Origin: a virus
Taxonomy: Duplodnaviria > Caudoviricetes
DNA: 64,000 nt
Direction: 5' to 3' (one strand)
IMG/VR virus record: IMGVR_UViG_3300032243_000867
Span: 201,896-265,895 of that record
Under the pieces are notes generated by a model. The model did not search any database, was not told the origin of the DNA, and saw nothing but the letters and a program-made list of their open reading frames with translations. Both the position numbers and the translations under genes were made by a program. Shown in pieces: positions 5,901 through 64,000 of this stretch (positions are counted from its first letter, which is position 1; every line of letters starts with the position of its first letter).

Positions 5901-6265
5901 GGCTGATTCTCGAAGAGCTCACGGCCCCGACCGCTACGGGGGGCGGGCCTATCAACGAGTTTCGTGGGGTGTACCAAGACGACAACGAGCTCACCCTTCA
6001 GTTGTCCGCGCCGCAGAACCTCGCCCTCGCTGGAGGGCAAGCCTACATCATCGGCAGCGAGGGTCAGGTGATCCCCGGTTACGGAACGGGTGCCGTGAAG
6101 AACCGTGTGCTGGTCTCCCTCCCCGTAGGGGACACCCCGACGAACCACACGTACTGGTGTACCTACACCACGTCGGAGGACGTGGGCGACAAGGACATCG
6201 ACCCGAACTCGATGGAGTTCTTGGTGCTGGGTGATGTGCAAATTACGTTTGACGAGGATAGATAG
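2900..6265 (+). CDS. Baseplate J-like (wedge) protein, extended
   Basis: PGSVVRDTFLDP, AGTPAVGEVRF and VTNDAATFGGADIETNARLAARARNSL motifs are typical of Baseplate_J; TGATG overlap with the previous gene. Confidence 0.85.
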   Translation: MATSVQILGPDNVLRETLIFSTTQTARFFTGVLPDDTVDVEVSLFGQPFTTDPTLVAFQGTGFVVPNPTAYPGGLDLFSGDNEIQVRAVFLSGTRSPAATATVHLLPANQSETFSPPTGVTLERLDGSVKVTVLGLSDARIVGYNFYASSTQGGGTAGYSLLNVNRVTTGTPVQNVTDLYTLTADNVAQTATPLYYRAVITQENSAETVLSTDVDSRVEIPSAVTALRSTVTVSSVETLTYYSFQHNRSASALSIPATIFNGVFASTPATDLLYYVSTAIYYDSILRVEYESYYSTEVTGAPAQVRQQINGITAVSRQQVLENAIASIYRQNPDIAVQPGSVVRDTFLDPFTTEAERLRLMLDYVYRASSFDTLLLVDDPSGSGVSQPPASSPYKTALAAALFYANVDDVQNVIDGSFDKIAANFDVFRLAGTPAVGEVRFYTSAVPSQTVQIPLGTVVKGGGVDFRTTRSASMPVSQLASFYNPSTRLYSVTVPVRAISVGASTNVGPNQLTNSNVYGMSVTNDAATFGGADIETNARLAARARNSLASVDTGTTLGYLQTAAGVPGTIQNMVVRAGDPLMQRDYDTTLQRHLGGKVDVWARGLRTVTVTDSFAFTYERRDGVQFVVIGNPMNYVFRAVSEEVTPDNPLAAMLYYPSLDLGLKNVTTGTTFNLTNVTYLNFNTIQLDATLTQPPVTLTDIVLGDFRFRLGNKHTFVRQPVNAVSSVVGDVTGSLDFDLFSLVHPNGPLGLGCSTKAGDYLQINQSTDPAAVTPSGNLIPVSSEPHVITGFYTEYLYFLGAETLSIVVKDNTNSITYKGPYDPSGSPDYLIVEGTSTTAAGIKRTSTSAIPDGAVILISYSYYENFAVTYTTNLVTSVLQQELDDMAHATADVLAKQAVLTPVDITATVILKKGVDRVNADLAIRNNLQYLAGTLKLGDPMRRSDVIGEIDGTAGVSYVVVPLTKMVRATGCQIVRNDLATGSFADSFLIPDWSNGQYQTWLILEELTAPTATGGGPINEFRGVYQDDNELTLQLSAPQNLALAGGQAYIIGSEGQVIPGYGTGAVKNRVLVSLPVGDTPTNHTYWCTYTTSEDVGDKDIDPNSMEFLVLGDVQITFDEDR

Positions 6266-6284
6266 CTTATACCTCTCGGAGGGT

Positions 6285-7361
6285 ATGCGGTTCATCTACG
6301 ACGGTCACGCCAATGAGGGTGGAATCTACCGGATCACCAACCAGATCAACGGTCGGTTCTACATTGGCAGCACTTGTCAGTTCAAGGTGAGATGGGCAAC
6401 CCATCGCCGTGAACTACTCAAGGGGAACCACTGTAACGCATTTCTCCAGAATGACTTCAACAAGTGTGGCGCAGATGCGTTCGTTGTTGAGGTGCTGGAG
6501 GTGATCCCGGACAGGGACTCCCGCCTCTGGGCTGAAGGTGCGCTGATCCGCCAGCACTTCGGAAAGGGGTGTTACAACCTCGAACCTGAAGTAGGCCCCC
6601 ACTATCCAGTGAACTCACGGCCCCGGAAACCGCATACCGAGGCAACCAAGGAAAAAATTCGTCAGGCCAAGCGGGGTAAGAGACTCCCCCCAGAGGTCGA
6701 GGCACAACGTGTAGATGCTGTCCGAGCATCCATGGCAAAACTGAAAGCCACCGGAGGAACCCGTGATTGGGGGGCATCCAAGCGTGGGGTACCTCGAACC
6801 GAGGAAGCCAAGGCCAAAATGCGGGAGTCCGTTGAGCAGCGCCGACAGAATGGGACACTGGTTCTGTCCCCAGAGCAGAGGGATCACCTTCGTCAGGTCA
6901 ACCTCGGCAAAGTCTACGGTCCGCGTAGCGAAGAGACAAAGGCGAAACTGCGGGAGGCCTGGGAGTATCGTCCCAGGGTAGCAACCCGTGGTCCTATGAG
7001 CGAAGAGACCAAGGAGAACATCCGGCGGTCCAAGCTCGGGACCAGCCACACGGAAACGGCACGGGCTAAGATGTCAGCATCACACAAGGGCCGACCGTTG
7101 TCCGACGAGACAAAAGCCAAAATGTCCACCGCACGGAAGGGTCAGGGCACGGGCCGACGCCACTCAGAGGAGACTCGGGCCAAGATGTCGGCTGCGAAGA
7201 AAGGCCGACAGGGACGACCCCTGTCGGATGAGACCAAGGCCAAAATCTCTGCCGCACGGAAAAATCGTAGGTCTGTGCCCCACTCAGAGGAAACGCGGGC
7301 CATGATGTCACTCGCACAACAAAACCGTAGGGCATCCGAGAAGAGTGGGGCTGCACAGTGA
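6285..7361 (+). CDS. Free-standing GIY-YIG homing endonuclease with NUMOD3 repeats
   Basis: GGIYRITNQINGRFYIGST...HRRELLKGNHCNAFLQNDFNKCG nuclease domain, then repeated (H/L/M)SEET(K/R)AK(M/I/L)S motifs; start placed at ATG 6285 after GGAGG. Confidence 0.9.
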   Translation: MRFIYDGHANEGGIYRITNQINGRFYIGSTCQFKVRWATHRRELLKGNHCNAFLQNDFNKCGADAFVVEVLEVIPDRDSRLWAEGALIRQHFGKGCYNLEPEVGPHYPVNSRPRKPHTEATKEKIRQAKRGKRLPPEVEAQRVDAVRASMAKLKATGGTRDWGASKRGVPRTEEAKAKMRESVEQRRQNGTLVLSPEQRDHLRQVNLGKVYGPRSEETKAKLREAWEYRPRVATRGPMSEETKENIRRSKLGTSHTETARAKMSASHKGRPLSDETKAKMSTARKGQGTGRRHSEETRAKMSAAKKGRQGRPLSDETKAKISAARKNRRSVPHSEETRAMMSLAQQNRRASEKSGAAQ

Positions 7362-10300
7362 CAACACCCATCATCCCGAAGTCTCCGGTCCTCTACGGGC
7401 TGTACAGGTTCTTCCCGCCGTCGGTCTACGGGCCAGCGCCGCAGAACCCCGCGCCCTTCAACCTGCACGGGCAGGTGGATCTGGACCGGGTGAAGTCCCT
7501 GGCTGACCAGATCGTGACGGTGTTCCTGAACTCTCTGCCGAGCAACTATGTCTCGCAGGTGAAGGGGCCGTACTACGTCCAGCAGTTCCAAGCAGCGGCG
7601 GAAGAACTCGCGAAGATTCAGGTACTGCTTTCCGACGCCTACGAAGACAGCGACTACGACTTCACCCGCACGGAGGTTCTGTACCAGTTCCTCGCCACGC
7701 TGGTGTTCCCGGACTCGGGGAAGTCTGGGCTACCCCAGATCGACGGGGATCTCACCTACCGTGACTTCCTCAAGCGCATGGTCGCCCTGCTGTTGCAGGG
7801 GTCGAAGTACGTCTCGCTGGTAGGCGGGCTGGAAGCCCTCACCGACGCGAACGTGTCGGTGCTGGAAAAGGTCAAGCATCTTTCCGACCCGGGAATCCTA
7901 TGGACCCTTGCCGACCAGTTCACCTTCGAGGTGGACGTGTCGAACTTCAAGCGCACGGGTACCACCACGGCGATCACCGTCGCCACGCACTACCACACCG
8001 TCACGGTGAACGTATCGGGCACGGGCACCACGGCCTCGGTGCTGTACGACGCGGGCACCGGGCCAGCGCACACGCACACGATCACCGACTTCTTGGTGCA
8101 AGAGGGCGCGGGCACGGGACAAGCCCCGCACACTCACGACCTGATCTCGACGTTCCCCGACCTGCCCATCGTCCTTCAGCGCAACGCGGCGCTGGTGCTC
8201 CAGGCCCTCGATCCGGCCAGCACCTTGTACGAGTACCGAAATCTGTTTCGCGAGAACCTACGGGGGCTCATCACCGACCAAGTGACGGCGATGGACCTGT
8301 CCTCGGGATACTACGAGGACTTCCGGCACGATTGCTCGGGCGTGCGGGAAATCTCGGGCACCGACGGCATCGTGGGCGCGGACCGCTTCCTGTTCCACGA
8401 CCCGACCCTGTCGTTTCGCAGCGTGCGTGTCGGCGCGGAACTGGTCATTCCGGTGCTCCCGCCTCCCGCACCTTCGTCTCACCTACCGCGCGAGAACCGC
8501 TACCGGGTCACGGCGGTGGTGCCCTTCCCCTACGGCGACGACCCCATTCCGCGCGCGTATACCACGTCGCCCACGGGCTTGACGGGATTCGTGACCGTGA
8601 GCGAGGGCGCGTTCACGGATACGACCCAGAACTTCACCCTGTGCGGCGAGGGTGAGACTATCACCCTCACCTCGGGGCCGAACGCAGGCACCTACCTGTT
8701 GGACGTGGCCACGGGGTTGAACGGGGGTCCGTTGGGCAACCCGGCTACTCTCGGACCGTCCACGGGCGTGCGCCCCGTGCCGTCCTACCTCCGGGTGGTG
8801 CCGCGCATTATGACCCCCGGTACGGGCATCACCTACCGGGTGATGGTGGATCACCTCGGCGTGCGCGTGCCGCAGACGGTGACGAACGAAGATGCCGGTT
8901 GGTACTTCTTCGGCCCCGCCGTCACGGACACCCTCTACACGCGCCTCGGGCCTCTGGTGAAGTCTTGGGGTGACGCAACCCCGGCGCAGGTGGCCGACGT
9001 GACGGTGCGGTACGACGGGCTCCCTATCCCCGTCAGTGCCGTCAACCCCTACACGGGGGAAGTCACCCTCGCCGCGCCCGTCGCCCCGTTTGCGCCGGGG
9101 GCTCACACGGTAACGGTGAGCTACCGCTGGTTCATCTCGCCCGTGACGGGGATGGCGGGGTTGAACACCAAGGGGCTCACCCTCAACAAGTGGTCCCTGC
9201 GCGGTGGCCGCAACACAACCACCACCCCGACGCCGACGAGCGTCTATGGCGGTTTCTACACCACCCCGTTTCCCATGGGCGTGACCCTCGGGCGGTTCAA
9301 CCGTCGGGCTCCCTCCCTTCGCATCGCTCACAGGTACATCGGGTTCGAGAAGGGCTACACGGCGAGCCTCAACTCACCGACCACGATGCTCCTCAATCAA
9401 GTGCCGGGGAGAACCTCCGTTCCGTACGCCGTCGCGGACGTATCGCCCCAGAGCTTCCGATACGAGGGTGACGTACTGCCCGCCGCACCGTGGGAGCCCG
9501 TGGGTCCGGTGCTCGGGTCGCTGAATGAGGGGTACTACACCCTCGCGGACAACAGCCCCGCGCAGGTGGGTTACTGGAAGCGGGACTTCGCCCTTCCTAC
9601 CTCCACCACCGTCGCGATGGCCGCACGCTTTCGAGTGGTGAGTGCGAGCCCTGATGGGGTGTTCGCGGGCGTGGGCTTCGGGTTCCACAACAACCGTAGG
9701 CTGTTCTTCGCGGGTGCGTTGCGGGTGCCGAACCCGGTGACGGGAGAGCCTCTTCGGCACATTGGGATTCTCCTCCGTCCGGGAGACGCCTCACTGCGGT
9801 CTTCGTGGACCATCGGGCCGAACGCAGACGGCAAAGTGCAGAAGCTGTCCGCAGGGGCGACCTACGGCACGGTGGCCGTCCCCACGGCCACCGTGCCGAC
9901 ACTGGTCACGGCGGGCGACAAGTTTCAGATTCTCGACGGCACGCAAGCTGGCGTGTACACGATCACGGACTTGTACCTGTCGCGGCGCACGGGGCAGACC
10001 TTCTTGGTCGTTTCACCCCCGTTCCCGGCGAACCCGGAGCTTTTCGGCAACCGGGACGTGACCCTGTACTTCGACACCCCGTGGGATGCGGGGATGTGTA
10101 CGTGGCGTCTGTACGCGAACACCCGTAGTCAATCCGTCACGGTGGTGTTTGGCGGCACGTCGGGGTCTACGACCTCGGTCACGACGAACACCTTGGCTAG
10201 CCCCGCGTACCTCGGCCCGGACGTACTCCCAGAGGGCTACGGGCGGGCGCTCTGGGGCTCCCTCGACCGCATCGCCACGAACACTGCGACGTGGGACTTC

Positions 10301-13036: not shown

Positions 13037-13192
13037 ATGGCAGCGAAGGTTCAAGTGCTCGTCGGATTCGATGCAGACCAGATTGAATGGCTCAAGTCTG
13101 AGAGCCTTCGACGCCGCGTGCCCAGAGCTCAAGTTGTTCGCGAGCTAGTCCTCCGAGAAATGACTCCGCAACCGAAAACGCCCGTCGAATGA
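13037..13192 (+). CDS. Ribbon-helix-helix (CopG-like) protein
   Basis: Manual translation MAAKVQVLVGFDADQIEWLKSESLRRRVPRAQVVRELVLREMTPQPKTPVE; ATGA overlap with tnpB. Confidence 0.6.
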   Translation: MAAKVQVLVGFDADQIEWLKSESLRRRVPRAQVVRELVLREMTPQPKTPVE

Positions 13193-14427
13193 TCTTGCGG
13201 GCCTACAGGGTAGAGCTCGACCCAAACGACCGGCAACGGACGGCCTTTATCCGTCATGCCGGGTCCGTGAGGTTCGTCTACAACTGGGGCCTCGCTACTT
13301 TGATGCAGGACTACGCGGAGCGGAAAGCTGCCACCCCCGAAGGCGAAAAGGTGAAGGGTGGGTTGCGACCTCTCGATCTACAAGCCCGCCTTCCGGCGTT
13401 GAAGATCGAGCACCCGTGGCTCGCGGAAGTTACCGCACAGTCTCTCCAGATGTCTGTTCGCAACCTCGACCGTGCGTTCCGAGGCTTCTTTCGACGGGTG
13501 AAAGCGGGTCTCACTCCCGGATACCCCCGCTTCAAGAAGCGCGGGTTGACCAAGCCCGCGTTCCAATTTGCTCAGAAGGTCAAGGCTACGGGGACTCGCG
13601 TTTGTCTCCCGAAGATCGGACCCGTGCGGTTGAAGCAGCGGGGCTACATCCCCGCAGACCTCCCCCTCAAAACCGTCACCGTCAGGGAGGTTGTGGGGAG
13701 GTGGTTCGTAACGGTTCTGGTTGAGGTTCCAGACCCACCGAAGGTCGAAACGACCGGGGGGATCATTGGGATCGACCTCGGCGTCAAGACCCTCGCCACC
13801 CTATCGGACGGAACGGTCTACCCCAACCCGAAACACCTTGAACGGTCTCAAGATTCCCTAACGCGCCTTCAACGGAAGCTCTCCCGTCAGCAGAAAGGAT
13901 CGAACAGACGGGCCAAGACCAAGGTCCGCATTGCGAAGGCCCACGCACGGATCAGTAACCAACGGGTGGGTAGCCTCCACAAGATGACCAGCGAAGTCGT
14001 GAAAACCAAGCGACCTACGACTATCGTCATCGAGGACTTGAACGTCGCGGGAATGACCCGGAATCGTCGTCTAGCGAGGGCGGTGAGTTCCGCATCGTTC
14101 GCGGAGATTCGTCGTCAACTAACATACAAGTGTGACTGGCACGGGGTGAAACTCGTGGTAGCAGACCGCTTCTATCCGTCCAGCAAGACTTGCAACGGCT
14201 GCGGGGCGGTGAAGAGCGACATCACCTTGGGGGAGCGTACCTACGTCTGCGACCTTTGCGGGTATGTTCGAGACCGAGACGTGAACGCGGCTCTCAACCT
14301 ACGGGGTTGGGGAATGAATTTTCTGGCCGGGGGAACCCCGGCGACTGCTCGCGGAGGAAACGTAAGACCCGAAGCAATTCGGGCAGATTCCGTTGAAACG
14401 AGAACCGATCAGGGGACGGCCCCGTAA
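13189..14427 (+). CDS. tnpB: TnpB RNA-guided endonuclease
   Basis: N-terminal LRAYRVELDPNDRQ HTH; RuvC motifs IGIDLG, IVIEDL and DRDVNAALNL; zinc finger CNGC...CDLC. Confidence 0.93.
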   Translation: MILRAYRVELDPNDRQRTAFIRHAGSVRFVYNWGLATLMQDYAERKAATPEGEKVKGGLRPLDLQARLPALKIEHPWLAEVTAQSLQMSVRNLDRAFRGFFRRVKAGLTPGYPRFKKRGLTKPAFQFAQKVKATGTRVCLPKIGPVRLKQRGYIPADLPLKTVTVREVVGRWFVTVLVEVPDPPKVETTGGIIGIDLGVKTLATLSDGTVYPNPKHLERSQDSLTRLQRKLSRQQKGSNRRAKTKVRIAKAHARISNQRVGSLHKMTSEVVKTKRPTTIVIEDLNVAGMTRNRRLARAVSSASFAEIRRQLTYKCDWHGVKLVVADRFYPSSKTCNGCGAVKSDITLGERTYVCDLCGYVRDRDVNAALNLRGWGMNFLAGGTPATARGGNVRPEAIRADSVETRTDQGTAP

Positions 14428-40300: not shown

Positions 40301-43300
40301 CCCGTTTCGGCCCCCACACCGAAGGTGCCCGTGGTGAAGGGCGCATAGTTACGCTGGAGGAACGTGAAAGGGACGCCCCCGTTGACGTTCGCAGCGCGGT
40401 TGACCGTGTTGTAGATGTCGGCGGTGCCTACGGGGACGGTCGTTTCGTAGGTGGACAGGGCGCGCACCACTTCGAGGCGGCACTCGACGGACTCCGCCGC
40501 CGGGTTCACCGCCCCGCGCTCGCGGGCGCTGCGGGTGTCCACGGGGCCGGATACGGTCAGCCGGTCACCCTCGATAACGTAGGCGGCGGACTTCACCGCT
40601 ACGAGGTCGATGGTGAAGTCCAGCGGGTCAAGATCGGTCACGCCTCCGTAGGCGGCGAAGTCGAACACCGGGACGGCGGTTTCGACGGTGAGCTTCGTGG
40701 TGTTGAAGAAGCACGGGCCTACGCTTGGAACGAACGACCCGCCGTTGTCGCCCGATACGTCGAACACGCACGCCGTGATAACGGGGTTCGGGGCGTTCAA
40801 TCGCATGATGAACGTCGCGGCGGGAGCGAACGTGCCCGAAGCCTTCATCACGTTGATGCGAATTTCCGAAGGCTGGTCGGACGAGGTGAAGAAGGTGTTG
40901 AACCCGCCCGTGGGGGGGACGGCCCCGCCGCCGCCGTTGTTGTCGTCGAACACGAGGTTCGGCACGCCGATGAGCTCGAACGTCGTGCGGTAGTTCGGCC
41001 CGAAGGGGGCCTGCTTCACCCGGATGCCCGTGGTATGGGGAGCGGGAAAGGGCGGGTCGGCTTCGATGAACGTCTGGATCGCCGTGACGTTCAGGTCGAT
41101 CAGGCTGTTCTTGTCGGTGCGAGAGATGAACCGTGGGGGTTCGATGACCTTCGCCCCGTAGTCCACCGCCCCCACGGTGAGGATGCCCTGCGACCCGTTG
41201 GGGAGACCGCCCGTGCCTTGTTGGACGAACACGAGGTCGTAGGGGTTCACCGTGCCCACGCCCGAGTGCGCGGCGAACGGGGGGTCAAGGGTGACCGAAG
41301 CCCGAAGGGCGGCGGGTGCGGTAGGGAGGCTGTTGACCGCCCCGGCGTTGTCGAGGATCTCGTCCGGGTACGCGGCTTCCAGCGCGTACGGCGGGTACCC
41401 CGGGGCGGGCGGGTTCGCGGGCGGCGTCACCGTATCTACGGTGTAGAAGTCCACGCCCGCCGTGAAGGCGTCCCCAAGAACGGCGAGCTCCGTGGGGGCG
41501 ATCTGGTAGTAGGGCAGGGAGTAATCCCCCGAGTCGAGACGGGATGCACCCCGTAGGGCCGGGATGTTTGACGGGCTCACGTCTCCGTTCTGGAACGTCA
41601 CCCGAGCTTGAAGGTTGCGAAGCGGGGCGGGGGGCTTCTGGCCGAAGATTTCCTTCAGCCCGAAGAGGTTGGGGTCGCTGAACGACGGCAGGGTGATGTC
41701 TACTAGCTCGCCCGAGCGCCCGTCCAACCCCACGTCCGTTCCCGTGCGGTAGGCGGGAAGGGACTGCGAGAAGGCCGCGAGTTCGGCGTTCGTCGGCGGG
41801 TCGGACACGGCGGGGAGCACCGCGCCCGTGGTAGGAACCACGAACAGGGTGTCCCCCTTCTCGACCAGCGCAGCGGTGAGGGGCACGCCGTTCGCCGGGG
41901 CCGTGAGGCGCACGAGATTGCCCACGTTCGCCGCGGTGATCAGGACCGTTGCCCCCGCCGCGTCGTAGGTCTTCAGCGTGACGTAGCACCCTTGGAGGAC
42001 CGTATCGACGAACACCCCCGCATACACGGGTTGCCCGCCCACGGTGATTGTCGTGCCCGCGTAGCCCAGCCCGTAAACCGCCCCGTCGGGGGTTCCCAGT
42101 GATAGTTGGTCGCCGGGGGCGAAGGGCGGCGTGTGAAGGCTGGGGTCGCCCGTAGACAGGTCGTACAGGCCCGAGGTGCCCGTGCCGTTGGAGTACAGCA
42201 GGGCCGTGTCGGGCGTGCCGTTGGACTTCAGCGGGAACTGATCGAGGGGGAGCACCGTCGCCGCGAAGGCGGGTCGAATGACCGGGGGGACGGCGCTGAG
42301 GTAGCCCGAGGGCGAGAACGAGAAGATGCGGGCGCGGGCGAGACGATCTTGCACCGTGGCCCCGAGCACCGACGTGAGGTTGCCCCGCACGGGGTTGCTC
42401 AACCGCGCGATGGCTTTCCCGTTGGTGGACTGAAGGTCGATGACGGGCGGCGACGCGAACAGGTCTAGAAGCAGCTTCCCGTAGCTGTACACCCCGTTGT
42501 TGCCCGTGGTCGGGTCGTACCCGATGCCGGGGTCGGTGGTAGTAAACGCTTCCGTGCGTTCGGGGTACAGCCGCGAGAAGGCCGAAGGCTGGGACAGCCC
42601 CCGGTACACGCCGTAGGAGGACACCTTGAAGTGGATGAGCCCCGTGAGGGATACCGTGGTGCCGGTGAGGCCGTTGAGCACAACGTCGTCAACGTCGTTC
42701 TTGATGGCGCGGTATTGGGCGTTTTGAAGCGTTCCGAGGGCGTTCGCGGAGAGGGCCAGACCCTCGACCGCCCCGCCCGTGAGCGTCGCGCTGTACGGGT
42801 TGACGATGGGGTCGGTGGCGAGAAGCGCGACGGGCACCGTGCGGTAGCCGTTCCAGACTTCGTTCCACACGTTGCGGGCGTTGACCGCCCCAGTGATGCC
42901 GTCCTCGTATCCCGGCGGCGTCCACGGGTCGCCCACCCCCATCCACATACGGAGCTTGCCGTCGCGGTCACCCACGGGGTTGCCCGCGATGTTCTCCAAC
43001 ACCTGCTCGAACGAGGTGATCACCCCGTTGAAGTAGCGGAGGAACGTACGGGTCACCCGGTCACGGGACACGAGGTCTTGCCGCTCGGATGTCAGCCCCG
43101 CCGTGCCTTGCGTGGACGGGGAGTTCTTGGGGAATCCCCCCACCGAGGGGTTCGTGCCCGAGGCGTTGCGGGTGACCCCCTGCACGATGCTCCGCGCCGT
43201 CTCCGTGATGTACGCGGGGAGAGGTAGCGACCGTGCATAGAAGCTATCGGGCGAATCGAACGTGTAGGTGGCGGTGAGGGTCGCACCCAGCCTCCCGTTG

Positions 43301-48673: not shown

Positions 48674-49411
48674 TCAACGAACGATACGCCATTGGGCCAT
48701 ACCGTCGCGGGCCAGAATGCCCTTCGCGATGAGGTTCCGGGTGATCTCGCTGACGGCGGAGCGCACGCTTTCGCCCGTGAGGTTCGCGTTCACCGTGTGG
48801 TACCATTCGGAGATTTCGGGCCGGTTGACCACGCTCTTGGTCGAGAACCGATCCAGAAACGCGCGTTCACGAGGCGCGAGGCGGTAGTGGCTGTACCGTT
48901 TGTTGTTAGGCAGAACCGTAGGGGCGGCGGGTTCGGCCACGGGAGCCGTGGGTTCGGCCACGGGAGCCGTGGGTTCGTTGAACTGCCAGCGGTCGGGGCC
49001 GATGGCCTTGAGGACGCCTTCGCTCACGAGGGACTTCGTGATTTCGAGCGACATGGTCATCATGGAGTTCCGCGCGATCCCCGGCGACATGGCACGCTTG
49101 TACCACTCGTTGATCTCTTCGCGGGTCACGGTGCCCTTCGGGGCGAACTGGTCGATCACCCGGCACCAACGGGGCTGGAGGTTCAGGTGCGCCCAGCGCC
49201 GAGAAGGAATGGCATCCGACCCGTACCCCGCAGCGGTTACGGGGAGGGTCAGAGACGCGGCTACCTGTGCGATCTTCGTCAGCGGTTCGAGCTCCTCGCG
49301 GTAGCTGGCGAGGATGGCTTCGGCCTCCGCGATGTCGGTTTTCAGTTGCGCGATGCGGCGGGTGACGACTTCGTTGATTGCGGTAAGGGCGCTAGGTGTG
49401 GTGCTGTTCAC
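48674..49411 (-). CDS. Coiled-coil protein with two winged-helix-like repeats
   Basis: Two internal repeats of R-x-x-I-x-x-WY...EIT-x-x-L-x-x-x-G...W; N-terminus paralogous to 49469-49909. Confidence 0.7.
   Translation of the reverse strand: MNSTTPSALTAINEVVTRRIAQLKTDIAEAEAILASYREELEPLTKIAQVAASLTLPVTAAGYGSDAIPSRRWAHLNLQPRWCRVIDQFAPKGTVTREEINEWYKRAMSPGIARNSMMTMSLEITKSLVSEGVLKAIGPDRWQFNEPTAPVAEPTAPVAEPAAPTVLPNNKRYSHYRLAPRERAFLDRFSTKSVVNRPEISEWYHTVNANLTGESVRSAVSEITRNLIAKGILARDGMAQWRIVR
48929..48977. repeat. 21-bp tandem repeat, about 2.3 copies
   Basis: GGGTTCGGCCACGGGAGCCGT at 48929 and 48950 plus a partial copy; encodes the inter-domain linker EPTAPVA. Confidence 0.9.
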
Positions 49412-49461: not shown

Positions 49462-49469
49462 TTACGCCC
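49462..49469 (-). promoter_or_regulatory. GGGCGTAA motif
   Basis: In the intergenic gap, 50 nt upstream of start 49411. Confidence 0.45.
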
Positions 49470-49909
49470 TACGGGACGATCTTCCACGACCCCTCGTCGT
49501 GGGGGATGATGAACCCTTTGGCGGTGAGGTGCCGAGTCATATTGCAGATTTCAACCCCGAGGGAACGGGGGAGAATCTTGGGGTTCACCGCACGCCGATA
49601 CCACCCGGCAATGTCCTCGCGGGTGAAAGGCTTGGACCACTTGGCGAAGTGATTGACCGCTCTCTGGTAACGGGGCGGAAGGCGGTAGGGGTTGTACCGA
49701 TTGCGTCTGGGCGGGACGGGCTCCGTGACTGGGGCGGGAATCGCCGCCGCCGCAGGGGCACCCGCACCCGTCACCTGTGTGACTTTGAGCAACAAAGCAA
49801 TCTCCTCGCGGTAGCGGGCGAGGGTGGCTTCGGCCTCCGCGATGTCGGTTTTCAGTTGCTCGACGCGGCGGGTGACGACTTCGTTGATTGCGGTAAAGGC
49901 GCTGGACAT
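49469..49909 (-). CDS. Coiled-coil protein with one winged-helix-like domain (paralog of 48674-49411)
   Basis: AINEVVTRRVEQLKTDIAEAEA is shared; start at ATG 49909. Confidence 0.7.
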   Translation of the reverse strand: MSSAFTAINEVVTRRVEQLKTDIAEAEATLARYREEIALLLKVTQVTGAGAPAAAAIPAPVTEPVPPRRNRYNPYRLPPRYQRAVNHFAKWSKPFTREDIAGWYRRAVNPKILPRSLGVEICNMTRHLTAKGFIIPHDEGSWKIVP

Positions 49910-49960
49910 GGTGTTGTTTTTCTTTACAACAGAGGCGTGAATCCTGAATGCTTTTCGCAC

Positions 49961-50347
49961 TCACATTTCTGTAGGCCCATGCAGGAACCACGGGGTGAGG
50001 GCCGGGACGTACTCGACCTTGGGGTGTGGGGGCTCCGAGCCCGTGCGCTTCTTGACTTTGGCGAGCACGTCTTCAAGGGACCGCCCGACGTGGACGAAAT
50101 CGTCCAAGGGCCACACGAGGTGGTCGCCGTAGTGCCAAGCGGTGCCCGCGCGCACGGGGACCATCACCTTCTTCGCCCCCGGTTGGCACTCCGCGAGGTT
50201 CCACGGAGACACCTGTCCCATGCGCTTTCCCCCGCCGGGTTCGGCCCATGCGGGGCAGTAGGGGCACGTCCAGAAATCTGTGTTCTTGTAGAGCTTTTCA
50301 CAGGGAGTGCCACACAACGGGCACGTCCAGAAATGATCGCAGTTCAT
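49961..50347 (-). CDS. Zinc-finger protein
   Basis: Duplicated FWTCPxC motifs. Confidence 0.6.
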   Translation of the reverse strand: MNCDHFWTCPLCGTPCEKLYKNTDFWTCPYCPAWAEPGGGKRMGQVSPWNLAECQPGAKKVMVPVRAGTAWHYGDHLVWPLDDFVHVGRSLEDVLAKVKKRTGSEPPHPKVEYVPALTPWFLHGPTEM

Positions 50348-50562
50348 AGGCCAACTTTCGACGGGTCACGGGGTTCCCTTCCCCGAAGGGCGCACCGAAA
50401 CCCGGCATCGTCGAGACGGCACGCAGGCCCGTACGTGTCGCGAGACGCGGCGCGCACCCTCGACGGTACGTTGCTGTACCAACCGCCGCCGCGTTGGACG
50501 CGAAGGCGGGTGTCGGTCGGGTTTGTTTCGTAGGGAGCGGGGGTCTTTCGTGATCTTGCCAT
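50344..50562 (-). CDS. Stand-alone DGR-type variable-region mini-protein C15
   Basis: MARSRKTPAPYETNPTDTRLRVQRGGGWYSNVPSRVRAASRDTYGPACRLDDAGFRCALRGREPRDPSKVGL; GGGCGTAA 7 nt upstream. Confidence 0.8.
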   Translation of the reverse strand: MARSRKTPAPYETNPTDTRLRVQRGGGWYSNVPSRVRAASRDTYGPACRLDDAGFRCALRGREPRDPSKVGL

Positions 50563-50569
50563 ACCCCCG

Positions 50570-50577
50570 TTACGCCC
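50570..50577 (-). promoter_or_regulatory. GGGCGTAA motif
   Basis: 7 nt upstream of ATG 50562. Confidence 0.55.
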
Positions 50578-50611
50578 TACAGGTCTTCGGGGTCTTCCAA
50601 CATCGCCCCCG

Positions 50612-51055
50612 TCAGAACGTCGCACGTCGCACGTTGGCGAAGGGTAGATTCGTGAGGTCGGCCTCTACGCGGGGAGAGTACTCGGTGGAACCGCAGAAGG
50701 GGCAGGGCTCGCCCGTGTCATGGGCGACATGGTGACACTGCGCGCAGAAGTGCTCCGTGATGCACCCCTCGTCGTCGCACGCATAACACCGCTGTCCCAC
50801 CGTGTGGATGTACGTCCGGGTGGCGATAGCGCCGCACTCGCCGCACTTGGGGAGGTGCTGGCGCAGCAAGGAATCCATCGCCTCGACACGGCGTACCAAC
50901 TCCCGTGCGATCTCCAAGATCTCCGGTCCCGAGGAGTCCACGGGCGCACCGAGGGCTTCACCGATGGCGATGATCTCGTCCAAGTGACGGGCGTCGTCCC
51001 GCAGGGCTTGTTCCAGCAGTTCTTCTTGGGGGGAGTGAATCCGTCGCGGGGTCAC
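50612..51055 (-). CDS. Cys-rich zinc-finger protein
   Basis: CGEC, CYAC, CAQC, CPFC motifs. Confidence 0.65.
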   Translation of the reverse strand: MTPRRIHSPQEELLEQALRDDARHLDEIIAIGEALGAPVDSSGPEILEIARELVRRVEAMDSLLRQHLPKCGECGAIATRTYIHTVGQRCYACDDEGCITEHFCAQCHHVAHDTGEPCPFCGSTEYSPRVEADLTNLPFANVRRATF

Positions 51056-51405
51056 GGTTCACCCCGCTTGGCCCGCAGCTTGGCGCAGTGATCTTCCCAC
51101 ACCCTCGCGGACTCTTCGTCTGACAGGGGCTCTACTTCCACGGTCACCTTCACCCGCATCACCGGGAGGGCCTTGCGGGCGGTGAGTTCGCGGTACTCGT
51201 CCCTCAAGTCCTTGAAGTAGCCGTCCTCGTCCACCTCGTCCTCAAACGCCATAGGGGCCGACGCACGGACGGTTGAACCCCCTGCGTCGAGGACGAAGGC
51301 GCTGATGCCCTTCATCACGGTCTCGTCGGTCCCGAGCCCGTAGATGTAGTTCTCCTCGTAGTCGGCCACGCACAGGGCGTGGCCCTCAAACTTGCTCGTG
51401 CCCAT
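51052..51405 (-). CDS. Hypothetical acidic protein
   Basis: Start reassigned to ATG 51405 (TGATG overlap). Confidence 0.6.
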   Translation of the reverse strand: MGTSKFEGHALCVADYEENYIYGLGTDETVMKGISAFVLDAGGSTVRASAPMAFEDEVDEDGYFKDLRDEYRELTARKALPVMRVKVTVEVEPLSDEESARVWEDHCAKLRAKRGEP

Positions 51406-51944
51406 CACTTCGCACGATACACAGAGAGCCCGTCGTGAATCCCCGACCACTGAGGAAGGCAGACGCACTGCTCCTCGCTCCAGTGCTCGTCGAGGATGCG
51501 ATGGAACTCGTCGTCGGCGGTGCAGCCCCCGGAGCCCTCACCGACGTACACGAGGGTGCTCCCGCCCGCCTCCATGAAGCGAAGGAGGCACTCCGTGCCC
51601 ATCGGCGTGGCATACGGGGGCCACACCAACATGAGCGCGTGGTCCTTGTGCGCGCGGGTGATTACGTCGCACGTCCCCTCCGACACGGGGTGCCAGAGCT
51701 TGCCCGTGGCCCCATCAGAATGGTCTCCCGGTTCGCGGTCGTAGCACTCGACGGTGCCGCCCGCTTCGGCAATGAGGCTGGCCCAGTAGCCGTTCCCGGC
51801 CCCAAGCTCGATGACGGGTTTGCAGAGTCCGACGATGGTCGCGATGGCACGGTCGTCGGGGATCGCCCATGCGTACTCGGCCACGAGGGCGGCACGGGCA
51901 CTCCACCCTCGCTCCCGTTGGGCGCGGAGTTCGTAGGCGTTCAT
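51405..51944 (-). CDS. Class I SAM-dependent methyltransferase-like protein
   Basis: YAWAIPD...VIELGAGNGYWASL...LMLVWPP...LVYVGEGSGGCTA. Confidence 0.8.
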   Translation of the reverse strand: MNAYELRAQRERGWSARAALVAEYAWAIPDDRAIATIVGLCKPVIELGAGNGYWASLIAEAGGTVECYDREPGDHSDGATGKLWHPVSEGTCDVITRAHKDHALMLVWPPYATPMGTECLLRFMEAGGSTLVYVGEGSGGCTADDEFHRILDEHWSEEQCVCLPQWSGIHDGLSVYRAK

Positions 51945-52138
51945 GCACGCACCGCGTGACCTTTGCAGGGCTCGTTTGCCGCCGCTTGCCCCGGTTCTGT
52001 TGACAGGTAGTACAGGGTGTAGTGAGCCCCGCACTTCTCACAGCAGATACGGGTCGGGAGGCTGGACCCGCCGTGGAGCTCCAGCCCCGGCTTCACCCTC
52101 CAGACGTGCGCCCCGTCGTCGATTTTGGACTCACTCAC
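51941..52138 (-). CDS. Small hypothetical protein sharing its first codons with cassette C13
   Basis: VSESKIDDG...CCEKCG; GTGA overlap with C14. Confidence 0.55.
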   Translation of the reverse strand: MSESKIDDGAHVWRVKPGLELHGGSSLPTRICCEKCGAHYTLYYLSTEPGQAAANEPCKGHAVRA

Positions 52139-52326
52139 GGTTTTACTTTCCTCTCACATCCCACACGCGCGCACCGAAACCCCAGGTTGTCGAACCGGTA
52201 CGTCGGACCGTCCCCGCGACGGTCCGCGACGCGCACCCTCGACGGATAGCTGACGCCCCAGCTACCGCCGTGGCTGAGGCGGTGAAGGGTGTCGGAGGTG
52301 GGTTGCTTGGTGGTGGGGGGGTTCAT
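52135..52326 (-). CDS. DGR-type variable-region mini-protein C14
   Basis: MNPPTTKQPTSDTLHRLSHGGSWGVSYPSRVRVADRRGDGPTYRFDNLGFRCARVGCERKVKP. Confidence 0.8.
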   Translation of the reverse strand: MNPPTTKQPTSDTLHRLSHGGSWGVSYPSRVRVADRRGDGPTYRFDNLGFRCARVGCERKVKP

Positions 52327-52334
52327 ACGGGTAC

Positions 52335-52342
52335 TTACGCCC
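52335..52342 (-). promoter_or_regulatory. GGGCGTAA motif
   Basis: 8 nt upstream of the C14 ATG; its TAA is the C13 stop. Confidence 0.5.
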
Positions 52343-52505
52343 GGGGTTCCCTTCCCCGCAGCGCGCACCGAAAACCGAGGCTGCTGTCCCGGAGCGTCGG
52401 CCCGATCCTGTTACGGAACGCGACGCGCACCCTCGACGGATCGCGGTCGTCCCAGCCACCGCCGCGGAAGACGCGGAGGCGGGTGTCGGTCTTGGACTCA
52501 CTCAC
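52335..52505 (-). CDS. DGR-type variable-region mini-protein C13
   Basis: VSESKTDTRLRVFRGGGWDDRDPSRVRVAFRNRIGPTLRDSSLGFRCALRGREPRA; GTGA overlap. Confidence 0.8.
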   Translation of the reverse strand: MSESKTDTRLRVFRGGGWDDRDPSRVRVAFRNRIGPTLRDSSLGFRCALRGREPRA

Positions 52506-52933
52506 GGCTTCACCACGGGCCACGGCACGAGGTTGCCGTCCCAATCAATCGACCGCCAGTACCACACATGGAGTCGGGGGTTCTTTCGCTGGTAGGCGGC
52601 GTACTTCTTGGCCGTCTCGCCGCCCATCACCCGGCAACACGGGCCACCAGAGCGGTGGTCGAAGCTGACCAAGAAGTCCCCTCCGTTGTCGTCGTGCGCG
52701 TCCACCTCCTCGTCGGTGGGGGGCACCGTGCGGTAGTCCTTCGCAGTGAGGGTGGCCTCTCGCAGCACCGTGCGGGCATCGAGCACCTCGATGCCCAAGA
52801 GCTTCCCGTCCGCGTCGTAGTCGATCACGAACGGGCCGTGGGTGTCCCGTCGCACGGACTCACTGGGACGGGTGCCGTCCGGGTTGACGTGCAGGTAGGC
52901 GGCGTTGGCTTCGGCGTCGTATGTGAGTCTCAT
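52502..52933 (-). CDS. DUF2283-like domain protein
   Basis: MRLTYDAEANAAYL...FVIDYDADGKLLGIEVLDA. Confidence 0.75.
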   Translation of the reverse strand: MRLTYDAEANAAYLHVNPDGTRPSESVRRDTHGPFVIDYDADGKLLGIEVLDARTVLREATLTAKDYRTVPPTDEEVDAHDDNGGDFLVSFDHRSGGPCCRVMGGETAKKYAAYQRKNPRLHVWYWRSIDWDGNLVPWPVVKP

Positions 52934-52957
52934 GGCTCTTTTAGAAGATACCGCGGG

Positions 52958-53119
52958 TCATCGCGGCATCTTTCCCGGTAGGTGCGTGCGAAAGCCCAGC
53001 GCACTGTTACATCCCGAGGGCACGCGCGAATGGCGAGCAGACGCGAGCACCCACGACGGATCGTCGTAGAGCCAAGGGCTACTGCGGAAGACGCGAAAGG
53101 CTTTGACCGACGGCTTCAC
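52958..53119 (-). CDS. DGR-type variable-region mini-protein C12 (GFRTHL subfamily; not in the ORF track)
   Basis: Manual translation VKPSVKAFRVFRSSPWLYDDPSWVLASARHSRVPSGCNSALGFRTHLPGKMPR; GTGA overlap. Confidence 0.72.
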   Translation of the reverse strand: MKPSVKAFRVFRSSPWLYDDPSWVLASARHSRVPSGCNSALGFRTHLPGKMPR

Positions 53120-53625
53120 GGCTTCGCCCACGCCTCCGCGAGCACCTCCGCAGGGGCCACGTCACCGTGTCGGGTGGCGAGGTCCGTGGCCCACTCCATC
53201 ACCAGACGCGGGTAATCCCGTGCCTCGGTCCCGTAGGGGACCAGCACCGCCGGGATCACCCCCATCGGGTCGCCGCCGCACTCGCGCGCCGTGGGGTGAT
53301 CGTAGGTATCGAACGCGGTGCGGGACGGGTCACCGGGCCACGGGATCTCCCCGGTCTTCGTCCACCCCCGCGCCACCAGCACCCGCCGCATCGCGTCGGG
53401 CGAGGTGGCCTTGAGGGAGTCCTTGTCGAGACCCGCGAGGGCACGAACCGCACGGAGCAACTGCCCCTGCCCCGCCGCCTCGTGACGGTAGAGGGCAGCT
53501 TGGGCGCGGTGTACCGTGGCTTCACAGTAACGGAGGTCACGGGGTGTCAGCTTCCCTTGGGCAAACAGTTCCGTGCCTTCCGCGAGGTCTTCGAGGGCTT
53601 GGGCGAGGGGGAGCTTCGGGTCCAT
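53116..53625 (-). CDS. Hypothetical protein
   Basis: 169-aa ORF, GGGCGTAA 8 nt upstream. Confidence 0.7.
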   Translation of the reverse strand: MDPKLPLAQALEDLAEGTELFAQGKLTPRDLRYCEATVHRAQAALYRHEAAGQGQLLRAVRALAGLDKDSLKATSPDAMRRVLVARGWTKTGEIPWPGDPSRTAFDTYDHPTARECGGDPMGVIPAVLVPYGTEARDYPRLVMEWATDLATRHGDVAPAEVLAEAWAKP

Positions 53626-53633
53626 GCCCGACG

Positions 53634-53641
53634 TTACGCCC
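53634..53641 (-). promoter_or_regulatory. GGGCGTAA motif
   Basis: 8 nt upstream of ATG 53625. Confidence 0.55.
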
Positions 53642-55724: not shown

Positions 55725-55732
55725 GGGCGTAA
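55725..55732 (+). promoter_or_regulatory. GGGCGTAA motif
   Basis: 9 nt upstream of ATG 55742. Confidence 0.55.
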
Positions 55733-56243: not shown

Positions 56244-56251
56244 GGGCGTAA
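56244..56251 (+). promoter_or_regulatory. GGGCGTAA motif
   Basis: 9 nt upstream of ATG 56261. Confidence 0.55.
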
Positions 56252-61865: not shown

Positions 61866-62038
61866 ACTCGGGGTTCCCTTACTGACAGGTGGGTGCGAAA
61901 ACTCATGTCGGTTTCGCGCCACTCGGGCTCGTACGAGCCCCGGTCGGCGGGCCGCATGAACGGGGCGTAGGAGAGTCCCCAACCTCCTCCCACCAGTACG
62001 CGGGGGAGGTTGGGGTCCGGGGGCTGTGCCCGTCTCAT
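61862..62038 (-). CDS. VR mini-protein C1 (FRTHL subfamily), coupled to the FGE scaffold
   Basis: MRRAQPPDPNLPRVLVGGGWGLSYAPFMRPADRGSYEPEWRETDMSFRTHLSVREPRV; its ATG overlaps the scaffold TGA. Confidence 0.78.
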   Translation of the reverse strand: MRRAQPPDPNLPRVLVGGGWGLSYAPFMRPADRGSYEPEWRETDMSFRTHLSVREPRV

Positions 62039-62868
62039 TTGTGGACGGTGCTGGTCCACTCCCAGACGTTGCCGCTCATGTCGAGCAGCCCGTAGGGGGA
62101 GGCACCCTTCGGGCGGGCGGGGGTGCCGTCCGGGTTGACGCACGGGGCCGTGCGTTCCTTCTGGGTGCGGATGGACGACCAGCACAGGTCGTCCGTCGGG
62201 GCCTCGTTGCCCCACGGAAACTTCCGACCGTCCCAACCGCGTGCGGCGTGCTCCCATTCCTCCTCGGTGGGGAGGCCGACACCGGCCCACTTCGCGAACT
62301 CACAGGCGTCCCAGTAGGAGACTTCCACCACCGGGTGGTCGATGAGGTCCACCGTCGCGCCCGACTGGTCCGTGGCGGTCGTGGGCTTCAGGTCTTTCCC
62401 GCACGCCGTGGCGTACCAGTTCCACTGGCGCACGGTGGTGGGGGTCTGCGCCATGAACCCACCGGGGACTCTCACCTTCCGGCGCGTTTGAGACTCGTCG
62501 TCCCCCATCTCGAACGCCGTGGCCGGGGGGACGTAGCACATGGGCAGGGTGTTGCCGTCGGGGAGGACGTGATGCACCACCCACGGGGTTCCGCCCAGCT
62601 CCGCGAGCGTGGGCCAGATCTCGCGGACCTCGCCGTCGTCGTCCTCCAGGCGGGGGACGCACCCGTAGGTGCGGTGGACGCGAAACGTCCAGACCTCCTT
62701 GGAGGTGAGCACCCGCACGCCCGTGATTCCCGCCGGGAGGTTCCCGGCGATTTGGCGGATCACCGACATCACCTCGTCGAGGTGATCGCCGGAGGGCAAT
62801 CGGAAGTCGGGCTCGATGTCGAGCCATTGGCCGAGACATGATTCGATGAAGCACCCTTGGATTTCCAT
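62035..62868 (-). CDS. FGE-sulfatase/C-type-lectin-fold protein lacking its C-terminal variable region
   Basis: FEMG, QTPTTVRQW, HPVVEVSYWDACEFAKWAG, LPTEEEWEHAARG, FPWGN, SPYGLLDMSGNVWEW, then a stop after TSTVHK; GGAGA RBS before ATG 62868. Confidence 0.9.
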   Translation of the reverse strand: MEIQGCFIESCLGQWLDIEPDFRLPSGDHLDEVMSVIRQIAGNLPAGITGVRVLTSKEVWTFRVHRTYGCVPRLEDDDGEVREIWPTLAELGGTPWVVHHVLPDGNTLPMCYVPPATAFEMGDDESQTRRKVRVPGGFMAQTPTTVRQWNWYATACGKDLKPTTATDQSGATVDLIDHPVVEVSYWDACEFAKWAGVGLPTEEEWEHAARGWDGRKFPWGNEAPTDDLCWSSIRTQKERTAPCVNPDGTPARPKGASPYGLLDMSGNVWEWTSTVHK

Positions 62869-62890: not shown

Positions 62891-62898
62891 TTACGCCC
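62891..62898 (-). promoter_or_regulatory. GGGCGTAA motif upstream of the FGE scaffold operon
   Basis: 22 nt upstream of ATG 62868. Confidence 0.55.
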
Positions 62899-62900
62899 GG

Positions 62901-63056
62901 TCACGGGCGGGGGGCGGGGGTTTCGGCGGGTGGGGCGGGGGCGTTCTGCGCTTCGAGCGCAGCCGCGATGCGCTCCAGGGCGCGGGCGATACGGGGGAGG
63001 GTCCCCTCGTAGTAGACGCGACCCATCATCGTCTGCCAGAACCCGGGGCCGCTCAC
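62901..63056 (-). CDS. Small hypothetical protein
   Basis: VSGPGFWQTMMGRVYYEGTLPRIARALERIAAALE; GTGA overlap. Confidence 0.6.
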   Translation of the reverse strand: MSGPGFWQTMMGRVYYEGTLPRIARALERIAAALEAQNAPAPPAETPAPRP

Positions 63057-63469
63057 GCCGCCACCTCCTCGTAGTGGTAGTTCACGTCCACGTCGGGCGG
63101 GCACTCCCGGTTGCCGGGGTAGTGCCGGATCGAAGCGAGGGCGACCCGCACGGTGCCGTCGGCGCAGCGGACGCGCGCCCGGATGTACGATTGCCCGTTG
63201 GTGTCGAGCACCTCCAGAACCTCCACCGGGGCGGGCACCTCGCCGCCGCAGTCGTCGCCGCCGTGCAGGTCCACGAGGAAGGCGAGGGCCTCGCCCGTCT
63301 TGAGGTCGCGAAGCGCCTCGACGTACATCTGGTCGATCATCGCCTCGCGGTCGTACGCCGCGTCTCGCTCGCCGTAGTACGCCTCCATCTCGGCGAGGTC
63401 CTGTTCGGACGGTTCGTACGCCTGGACGGCGCGGTCTTCGGCCTCGAAGCGGTAGCGGTCTTCGTTCAT
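63053..63469 (-). CDS. Hypothetical acidic protein
   Basis: 138-aa ORF, AAGGAGG RBS, ATGA overlap. Confidence 0.7.
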   Translation of the reverse strand: MNEDRYRFEAEDRAVQAYEPSEQDLAEMEAYYGERDAAYDREAMIDQMYVEALRDLKTGEALAFLVDLHGGDDCGGEVPAPVEVLEVLDTNGQSYIRARVRCADGTVRVALASIRHYPGNRECPPDVDVNYHYEEVAA

Positions 63470-63618
63470 CGGTCCTCCTTACGTTTGCGGTTGGTGGGCG
63501 GCGGGGCGGCGGGCTGGCGGCGACGTTCGAGCCAGCCGTCCACCAGCCCCATGAGGGCTAGTGCCGCCGCGCAGTAGGCGGAGATGCCCGCCAACTCGGT
63601 GTCGGTGATCACGGTCAT
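63466..63618 (-). CDS. Small single-TM protein
   Basis: MTVITDTELAGISAYCAAALALMGLVDGW...; GGGAGG RBS. Confidence 0.55.
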   Translation of the reverse strand: MTVITDTELAGISAYCAAALALMGLVDGWLERRRQPAAPPPTNRKRKEDR

Positions 63619-63671
63619 CCTCCCCTTCGCCCCCCTAACCGGACGGGAGGGGGGTCTATTAGTGGGAATCG

Positions 63672-63750
63672 TTAGCGCCCCGACGCGGAATCGAACCGCG
63701 CACACCCGCCCCCGGTTCAGCCGGGGGCGCGCGCCTCCTCGACCGTCGCC
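63672..63750 (-). ncRNA. tRNA-like element (degenerate)
   Basis: Perfect T-arm CGCGG-TTCGATT-CCGCG (63684-63700) preceded by an 8-bp hairpin GCCCCCGG-CTGAA-CCGGGGGC; no canonical D-arm or acceptor stem found. Confidence 0.25.
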
Positions 63751-63817
63751 TCGCCTCGCGCCCAACTGCGCGCCGGGATTGGAGGGGATGCCCGCCAAGT
63801 TGCTTGGCGGGACGCTG

Positions 63818-64000
63818 TCACTCGACGAGCGCAGCCTCGACTACCTCCCACGGCACCGCGCAACGCACGGCGGCGGCGTCGGCGGCGGAGTCGTCGGCGT
63901 AGTAGGCGGCGCGGGCGGCGGCGCGGGCGTAGACGGCGGCGGCGTCGGCGGCGTCGGCGGCGTCGTAGTAGGCGGCGCGGGCGGCGGCGTGGGAGGCGGC
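63818..64000 (-). CDS. Ala-rich low-complexity protein, 5'-partial
   Basis: Manual translation ...AASHAAARAAYYDAADAADAAAVYARAAARAAYYADDSAADAAAVRCAVPWEVVEAALVE-stop. Confidence 0.65.
   Translation of the reverse strand, partial: AASHAAARAAYYDAADAADAAAVYARAAARAAYYADDSAADAAAVRCAVPWEVVEAALVE

Follow-up and report, generated by a model that had tools for sequence, protein, structure and literature searches.

The window analyzed here, a 64,000-nucleotide stretch of DNA, is the final 64 kb of a 265,895-bp IMG/VR virus record (G000), and the elements in question are four small cassettes, C12 to C15, dispersed within it. All four proved to be intact minus-strand open reading frames (ORFs) at the positions given by an earlier, sequence-only reading (the first-pass annotation): C12 at 52958 to 53119 (53 codons, GTG start), C13 at 52335 to 52505 (56 codons, GTG start), C14 at 52135 to 52326 (63 codons, ATG start), and C15 at 50344 to 50562 (72 codons, ATG start). 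Each encodes just the last ∼50 residues of an FGE-sulfatase/C-type-lectin domain. C13, C14, and C15 match the Pfam FGE-sulfatase family (PF03781) at 26.8 to 28.9 bits (E values of 1e-6 to 5e-6; the curated cutoff is 23.3 bits) and cover only profile positions ∼204 to 255 of 255; judged from this coverage, they are fragments of the domain, not whole domains. C12, the most drifted of the dispersed copies, has no Pfam match; it gave an E value of 8e-10 against a cassette hidden Markov model (HMM) built with C12 left out, and it retains the fold-defining R..W, VxxAxR, and GFR motifs. Among the neighbors of these cassettes, family matches were limited to one DUF2283 domain and one PHROG of unknown function. 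The DUF2283 gene (52502 to 52933, minus strand) lies upstream of C13, and a 169-aa ORF (53116 to 53625, minus strand), for which no orthologs were found in viral contigs, lies upstream of C12. The tail of C14 ends in ERKVKP, with its stop codon overlapping the GTG of a 65-aa ORF, and the stop codon of C15 overlaps the ATG of the next gene.

According to the first-pass annotation, each cassette keeps a start codon together with either an overlap or a signal of its own. This held for all four, with the qualification that the signal, GGGCGTAA, is not a cassette feature. It is present in 51 copies genome-wide, mostly 7 to 12 nt before the start of a real ORF, and the window holds 13 copies versus ∼2 expected. 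The GTG start of C12 forms GTGA with the stop of the upstream 169-aa ORF, and that of C13 forms GTGA with the stop of the DUF2283 gene, whose last codons (GTG AAG CCG TGA) make up the coupling junction. The ATG codons of C14 and C15 lie 8 and 7 nt downstream of GGGCGTAA, which occupies 52335 to 52342 ahead of C14 and 50570 to 50577 ahead of C15 (both minus strand). The former copy overlaps the stop codon of C13, and the C13 end, CCCCGGGCGTAA, supplies the C14 start signal. The 169-aa ORF also has its ATG 8 nt after GGGCGTAA; copies in the window, of the form GGGCGTAA(C), are found, for example, at 53634 to 53641, 55725 to 55732, 56244 to 56251, and 62891 to 62898. The motif may act in translation or, with TAACGT resembling a −10 element, as a phage promoter serving very short leaders. 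On our reading of it as a phage-wide gene-start signal, C14 and C15 each have a signal for expression ahead of them. Either an NTGA overlap or a GGGCGTAA-N7-8-ATG start was found for all HMM-detected cassettes of this genome (25/25) and for 55 of the 58 cassettes across four phages; the open frame is kept in all 58. A silent donor would possess no start or expression signal, and all four dispersed cassettes have one or the other of these arrangements.

The dispersed cassettes belong to a larger family. A six-frame scan of the whole genome with the cassette HMM, as the first-pass annotation had recommended, returned 25 cassettes plus the weaker C8, giving ∼26 at seven loci rather than the 15 counted originally. 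Main array 1 (C1 to C6, 60985 to 62037, minus strand) is chained through ATGA or GTGA overlaps, and main array 2 (C7 to C11, 59444 to 60291, minus strand) includes C10. The record has a single N-terminal FGE region, the scaffold FGE/C-type-lectin gene at 62038 to 62868 (minus strand; 277 aa), which covers Pfam positions 12 to 193 of 255 and ends in GNVWEWTSTVHK just before the start of the would-be variable region (VR). The initial claim that no scaffold lies beside C12 to C15 is thus correct for this genome and fails as a general rule, as a relative has a scaffold at the C15 locus. The split at the VR boundary is conserved: all 32 aligned scaffold homologues (44 to 94% identical) stop ∼6 residues after NVWEW, and in every relative the cassette directly following the scaffold has an ORF of its own. 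Array size varies between close relatives. In three lineages (G003, P0042, and P0043), a cassette is fused to the N terminus of the scaffold. These fusions (at L003:5677-6708 in G003) are in frame, with a linker ending in SGRNTG, and amount to a circularly permuted FGE domain. Programmed frameshifting from the scaffold into the first cassette was considered and rejected, as the junction (AAATGA here and GTGA in relatives) is not conserved and has no conserved slippery site. Read-through of the scaffold TGA was rejected because the cassette lies in a different frame.

A codon alignment of 36 cassettes from four phages revealed a framework that is almost invariant, third positions included, interrupted by ∼10 hypervariable codons. 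Each of these codons encodes 9 to 11 different residues, with the first and second positions near saturation and a C almost fixed at the third. This is the pattern left by AAC codons whose adenines have been mutated, the kind of change written by diversity-generating retroelements (DGRs). The phage cassettes align over ∼120 nt to a template repeat (TR) in a bacterial metagenome-assembled genome (MAG) (L135:1163-1286), and their mismatches concentrate at template adenines. For C10, all mismatches (12/12) fall at adenines and none of the 95 non-adenine sites is changed (Fisher p = 1e-9). The dispersed cassettes display the same bias. In C15, 15/21 mismatches are at adenines (15/26 adenine sites versus 6/92 others, or 6.5%; p = 6e-8); in C13, 17/29 (17/27 versus 12/97, 12%; p = 4e-7); in C14, 18/37 (18/27 versus 19/97, 20%; p = 7e-6); and in C12, 19/38 (19/26 versus 19/83, 23%; p = 6e-6). 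Even for C12, the alignment to the TR scored 85, compared with a shuffle maximum of 34. The L135 template fits every cassette in the window better than the templates of related MAGs do. The clustering of mismatches at template adenines identifies all four dispersed cassettes as DGR VRs. A sequence resembling the initiation of mutagenic homing (IMH) element, GGGTTTCGGTGCGC, is retained in C14 and C15 and, with one change, in C13.

Divergence at non-adenine sites amounts to 3 to 4% for C2 to C5, none for C10, and 6 to 23% for C12 to C15. By this measure the dispersed copies are older than most array copies, and as targets they are old or inactive. Ordinary genes are 10 to 30% divergent between the phage genomes, and fresh cassettes in all of them still match the template at non-adenine sites, which argues for repeated rewriting over one ancient capture. 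Orthologous VRs at the C15 locus and in the arrays differ at adenine sites from those of G003 and L173 within conserved flanks (a comparison of contigs). C12 departs from this pattern, being 97.5% identical to its G003 ortholog, adenine sites included.

No reverse transcriptase (RT) was found in the phage genomes (G000 to G003) by a PF00078 search or a YxDD motif scan; the same PF00078 search does detect the MAG RT (E value of 3e-14). No TR-like copy occurred among the cassette matches of the phage genome. By these searches, then, the replicon that holds the targets carries neither RT nor TR. We scanned one genome per prokaryote species with a framework pattern of 19 specified bases and obtained 46 matches, with cassette-like sequence at three loci: L117 and L135, both from one MAG, and L140. 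The remaining matches were rejected as chance occurrences with no cassette. L140 is a 1,349-bp contig in a Terriglobia MAG with two phage-type cassettes nearly identical to a pair at 70.9 to 71.2 kb of the phage genome, and it probably represents a piece of phage sequence mis-binned with bacterial contigs.

L135 is a 2,470-bp contig of an 8.1-Mb freshwater MAG labeled uncultured delta proteobacterium. It contains, in order, an RT (YMDD and LGNLTSQ motifs; Pfam RVT_1), a 124-nt TR, and a convergent full-length FGE target with its VR; the template reads RGGSWNNNEPSWVRAASRNTNEPANRNNNIGFRCA. On other contigs of the MAG lie further targets and a bAvd gene, the latter with the opening 43 nt of the template behind it. 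The MAG has 37 FGE domains in all, and its caspase-FGE and kinase-FGE targets adjoin CHAT-TPR and kinase genes. On this gene content, the system belongs with the cellular DGRs for which a role in diversifying antigen sensors has been proposed (PMC10907252). The terminus of the phage scaffold, GNVWEWTSTV, is identical to the MAG target at the split point. Across L135 and two further MAG loci, L176 (G004:C407) and L177 (G004:C145), the genes beside the caspase-FGE and kinase-FGE targets encode a Ser/Thr kinase, a PD-(D/E)XK transposase, and a CHAT-TPR protein.

Searches for the template in other contexts were negative. Viral contigs gave no match to an adenine-rich template pattern, and metagenome contigs gave none to a stricter one; a looser framework pattern retrieved only further phage-type VR arrays from metagenome contigs, with no RT in the fetched stretches. 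The closest RT relatives on viral contigs were DGR RTs only 44 to 45% identical. No contig carrying the MAG RT is on record beyond the 2,470-bp one, and no phage DNA was found in the MAG other than the VR/TR match and weak FGE-domain similarity. The phage was found in freshwater and lake metagenomes from 12 studies, and the phage and the MAG RT both occur in freshwater or lake runs, with one study common to both. Megablast with the phage against GenBank phages yielded no match.

The first-pass annotation had proposed examining presence and absence in related phages, and the result was mixed: C12 is intact in G003, while C13 and C14 are missing from their slot in two relatives. It had also named frameshifts in relatives as evidence against expressed genes; we looked for such frameshifts and found none. 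The gene order of G003 is syntenic with that of the window. Around C12, identity between the two genomes is 78.6% for the upstream gene and 98.4% for the DUF2283 gene on the opposite side. After C12, G003 has four additional cassettes; at this place a run X2 contig is 309 letters longer. The C13/C14 slot is occupied in G003 by two unrelated small genes after the DUF2283 gene and in a contig of run X4 by 604 other letters. The opening bases of C13 are repeated where the gene following C14 begins, and a paralogous cassette pair at 71 kb has the opposite order to C13-C14. Both observations fit movement by recombination at cassette junctions. The leader and upstream flank of C15 are identical to those of the first cassette of a scaffold locus in G003, and its downstream flank equals the end of that locus, in which one cassette is followed by a cassette-scaffold fusion and then by another three cassettes (a scaffold and five cassettes). 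With flanks that match both ends, C15 would be either what recombination left of a scaffold locus or the starting point from which one grew.

C15 had been described as closest to C6. Its nearest relative is instead a cassette at genome position 41743, outside the window, with 81% agreement at the 27 template-adenine sites; C6 ranks second (63%). The C15 VR has 13 derived states in common with the cassette at 41743 and 8 with C6. In G002 (L002), two cassettes ending at 9226 and 65834 lie 56 kb apart and are identical at all 27 template-adenine sites, a coincidence that suggests a recent copy between loci. Derived states shared between loci indicate that copies were duplicated after mutagenesis.

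The three related contigs G001, G002, and G003 were recovered via the scaffold protein, and each joins sequence from both ends of the G000 record (window positions 63000 to 64000 and genome positions 1 to 1100). Since these ends adjoin in the relatives, the record represents a nearly complete genome of ∼266 kb, that of a jumbo phage. The record terminates in a GGCGGCG-rich low-complexity stretch, and the CheckV figure of 59% completeness is probably an underestimate. Among the products encoded in the window are baseplate proteins, a homing endonuclease, and PhoH. Two genes inserted amid the baseplate and structural genes, at 6231 to 7361 and 13189 to 14427, encode a homing endonuclease and a transposase. 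Two paralogous ORFs at 48674 to 49411 and 49469 to 49960 (minus strand) have a common N-terminal motif, TAINEVVTRR..QLKTDIAEAEA, and the former additionally has a tandem EPTAPVA repeat.

The first-pass annotation took the spread of the cassettes as independent expressed genes to favor action in trans. The open frames, the start signals, the conserved split, the cassette-scaffold fusions, the copies between loci, and a structural model of the complex all speak for this view. A model of the scaffold with C15 scored 0.92, compared with 0.00 for the best control, and placed the interface between C15 residues 19 to 66 and scaffold residues 264 to 276. A mark of 0.92 was reached by 58/80 solved complexes and 2/110 mismatched pairs, rough counts that depend on our own alignments. 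The fusions are a classical hint that suggests association of two proteins. Taken together, sequence and modeling give partial support to expression in trans.

To account for these observations jointly, we propose, with confidence that is evenly balanced, that C12 to C15 are stand-alone copies of a DGR VR, each packaged as a translatable mini-gene. Each cassette would supply the C-terminal, ligand-facing ∼50 residues of the FGE-sulfatase/C-type-lectin fold, and the single phage scaffold ends exactly where this segment should start. A translated mini-protein may then bind the scaffold noncovalently and complete the fold, so that one scaffold would display many alternative binding faces to a biological ligand. 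The diversity would be written through adenine-specific mutagenic retrohoming from a TR outside the phage. A near-identical template is present in the freshwater bacterial genome described above, the probable host, whose DGR is predicted to diversify caspase-FGE and kinase-FGE proteins; on the most economical reading, this cellular DGR would rewrite phage cassettes in trans during infection. The dispersed copies would be older duplicates that were moved by recombination between cassette ends, drifted, and may now represent fixed specificities, expressed through coupling to the upstream gene or through the phage GGGCGTAA signal. We hold only tentatively to the specific combination in which the host DGR rewrites orphan phage VRs in trans during infection and the phage displays the mini-proteins on its truncated scaffold by split-domain complementation.

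Several observations weigh against this proposal. The non-adenine drift of 6 to 23% may mean that the dispersed copies are no longer rewritten. In phage DGR targets as described, the VR closes at its 3′ end with a GC-rich IMH, and the hairpin beyond it has a 7- to 10-bp stem and a 4-nt GRNA loop (PMC3240598). The hairpin that follows the cassette VRs departs from this definition, with a 5-bp stem, a 7-nt loop, and a z score of ∼0 versus shuffles, and C14 has no hairpin after its VR. (The hairpin at C12 is an unrelated, perfect 11-bp one at 52948 to 52975 on the minus strand, which spans the C12 stop just before the DUF2283 gene; z score of −2.1 versus shuffles.) C13 and C14 are dispensable in two relatives, and since the DUF2283 gene is 98.4% identical in G003, the conservation of C12 may reflect a recently exchanged tract rather than selection. 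An RT may reside on an unsampled satellite or in a small gap at the contig ends. The MAG bacterium is probably the host, a link drawn from the template match and the shared habitat only. The complex model may only be reproducing the known single-chain FGE fold. None of the RNA runs held the cassette region; two runs labeled RNA-Seq are probably DNA, and contigs cannot show expression. Finally, dN/dS of C12 versus its ortholog is uninformative (4 changes), and the pooled value for other fixed cassettes (0.49) is weak.

In a rival reading, the dispersed cassettes are decaying relics in accessory slots, riding in operons with no function of their own, and only the scaffold-adjacent arrays matter. 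Such relics would explain the graded non-adenine drift (C15, 6.5%; C13, 12%; C14, 20%; C12, 23%), the absence of C13 and C14 from their slot in G003 and the run X4 contig, the resemblance of C15 to a leftover of recombination across a scaffold locus, and dN/dS values with no clear constraint. However, frames are open in all 58 cassettes of the four phages and start signals persist in 55, the phage start signal precedes C14 and C15 at the correct spacing, and the pooled dN/dS of fixed cassettes is below 1; even C12 keeps the R..W, VxxAxR, and GFR motifs and is intact in G003. We consider decay unlikely. We regard as somewhat less likely again a DNA reservoir, in which recombination or gene conversion swaps VRs with the scaffold-adjacent arrays and translation is incidental. 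C15, C6, and the cassette at 41743 do share derived states mosaically, one G002 VR is identical at two distant loci, array size differs among close relatives, and junction sequences are duplicated at insertion points, as with the C13 bases that recur after C14. Yet classical silent donors have no start codons, and every cassette here has a start with coupling or a start signal; moreover, even the cassette next to the scaffold is an independent ORF in all relatives, leaving no fused expression site to convert into.

The match to a cellular DGR also raises the prospect that the phage is acting upon the host system, with the cassettes serving as DNA decoys that soak up host DGR cDNA or the mini-proteins interfering with the host conflict-system sensors that this DGR diversifies. 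The matching DGR targets caspase-FGE and kinase-FGE proteins beside CHAT-TPR genes, a class proposed as antigen sensors (PMC10907252), and the GNVWEWTSTV end of the scaffold matches the host target letter for letter where the split falls. A decoy would have no need of the conserved scaffold that the phage keeps, and ORFs persist even in drifted copies that have lost their match to the template. We judge this explanation quite improbable.

Several components of the proposed system have precedent. Multiple, tandem, and remote DGR targets diversified in trans within one genome are known (PMC5758913, PMC10907252), and supply of TR and RT in trans from a plasmid works experimentally (PMC3240598). 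FGE-type DGR targets, such as those of the Treponema denticola TvpA class and of multicellular bacteria (PMC5758913, PMC10907252), use the same variable fold segment, an AAC-rich template with adenine-specific differences, and one template for several targets, including remote ones served in trans within the genome. The phage differs in that its VR is a separate 53- to 72-codon ORF cut off at the VR boundary, in that ∼26 copies accompany one scaffold, and in that the target replicon has no RT, Avd, or TR, the matching template being bacterial. Mtd of Bordetella phage BPP-1 is likewise a phage protein of C-type-lectin fold, and adenine mutagenesis varies the binding face at its C terminus. In BPP-1, however, the phage's own avd-TR-brt adjoins a single full-length target, and that target needs an 8-bp hairpin with a GAAA loop, whereas the cassettes here have a 5-bp stem and 7-nt loop or none.

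Tandem multitarget DGRs, exemplified by eight tandem targets in a Stenotrophomonas sp. (PMC5758913), also have tandem VRs served by one template, although these are full-length genes inside a complete DGR cassette. The silent arrays of Neisseria pilS and Borrelia vls resemble the phage family in having many partial copies of a variable segment, both arrayed and dispersed, that exchange with one another. Those donors are promoterless and startless and convert into one expression site, in contrast to the phage cassettes, all of which have starts; the scaffold-adjacent cassette is a separate ORF, unlike a pilS or vls expression site. In the papers searched, limited to open-access text, neither VR-only mini-genes nor a scaffold cut at the VR boundary nor phage targets with a cellular template were described.

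DGRs have been described as self-contained, with RT, template, and full-length targets on one replicon and remote targets only within the same genome (PMC5758913, PMC10907252). The family reported here departs from that description in three respects: the VR is excised as a mini-gene, it is multiplied ∼26-fold against a single scaffold, and the template was found only in a cellular genome. On the sequence evidence, the dispersed cassettes are the older, drifting, dispensable members of this family, orphan DGR VRs with an external and probably host-borne template, and they display a cassette life history: such copies are duplicated, escape rewriting, drift, and come and go between relatives. If the mini-proteins complete the scaffold, the arrangement would be a compact route to many binding specificities and a natural split-lectin design. 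If a host DGR writes into phage DNA, a proposed diversifier of bacterial adaptive immunity would be linked directly to a virus, and TR-VR matching would provide a new host-virus linkage signal in metagenomes. Rewriting in trans, if true, would constitute cross-replicon hypermutation that a virus borrows from the putative immune diversifier of its host.

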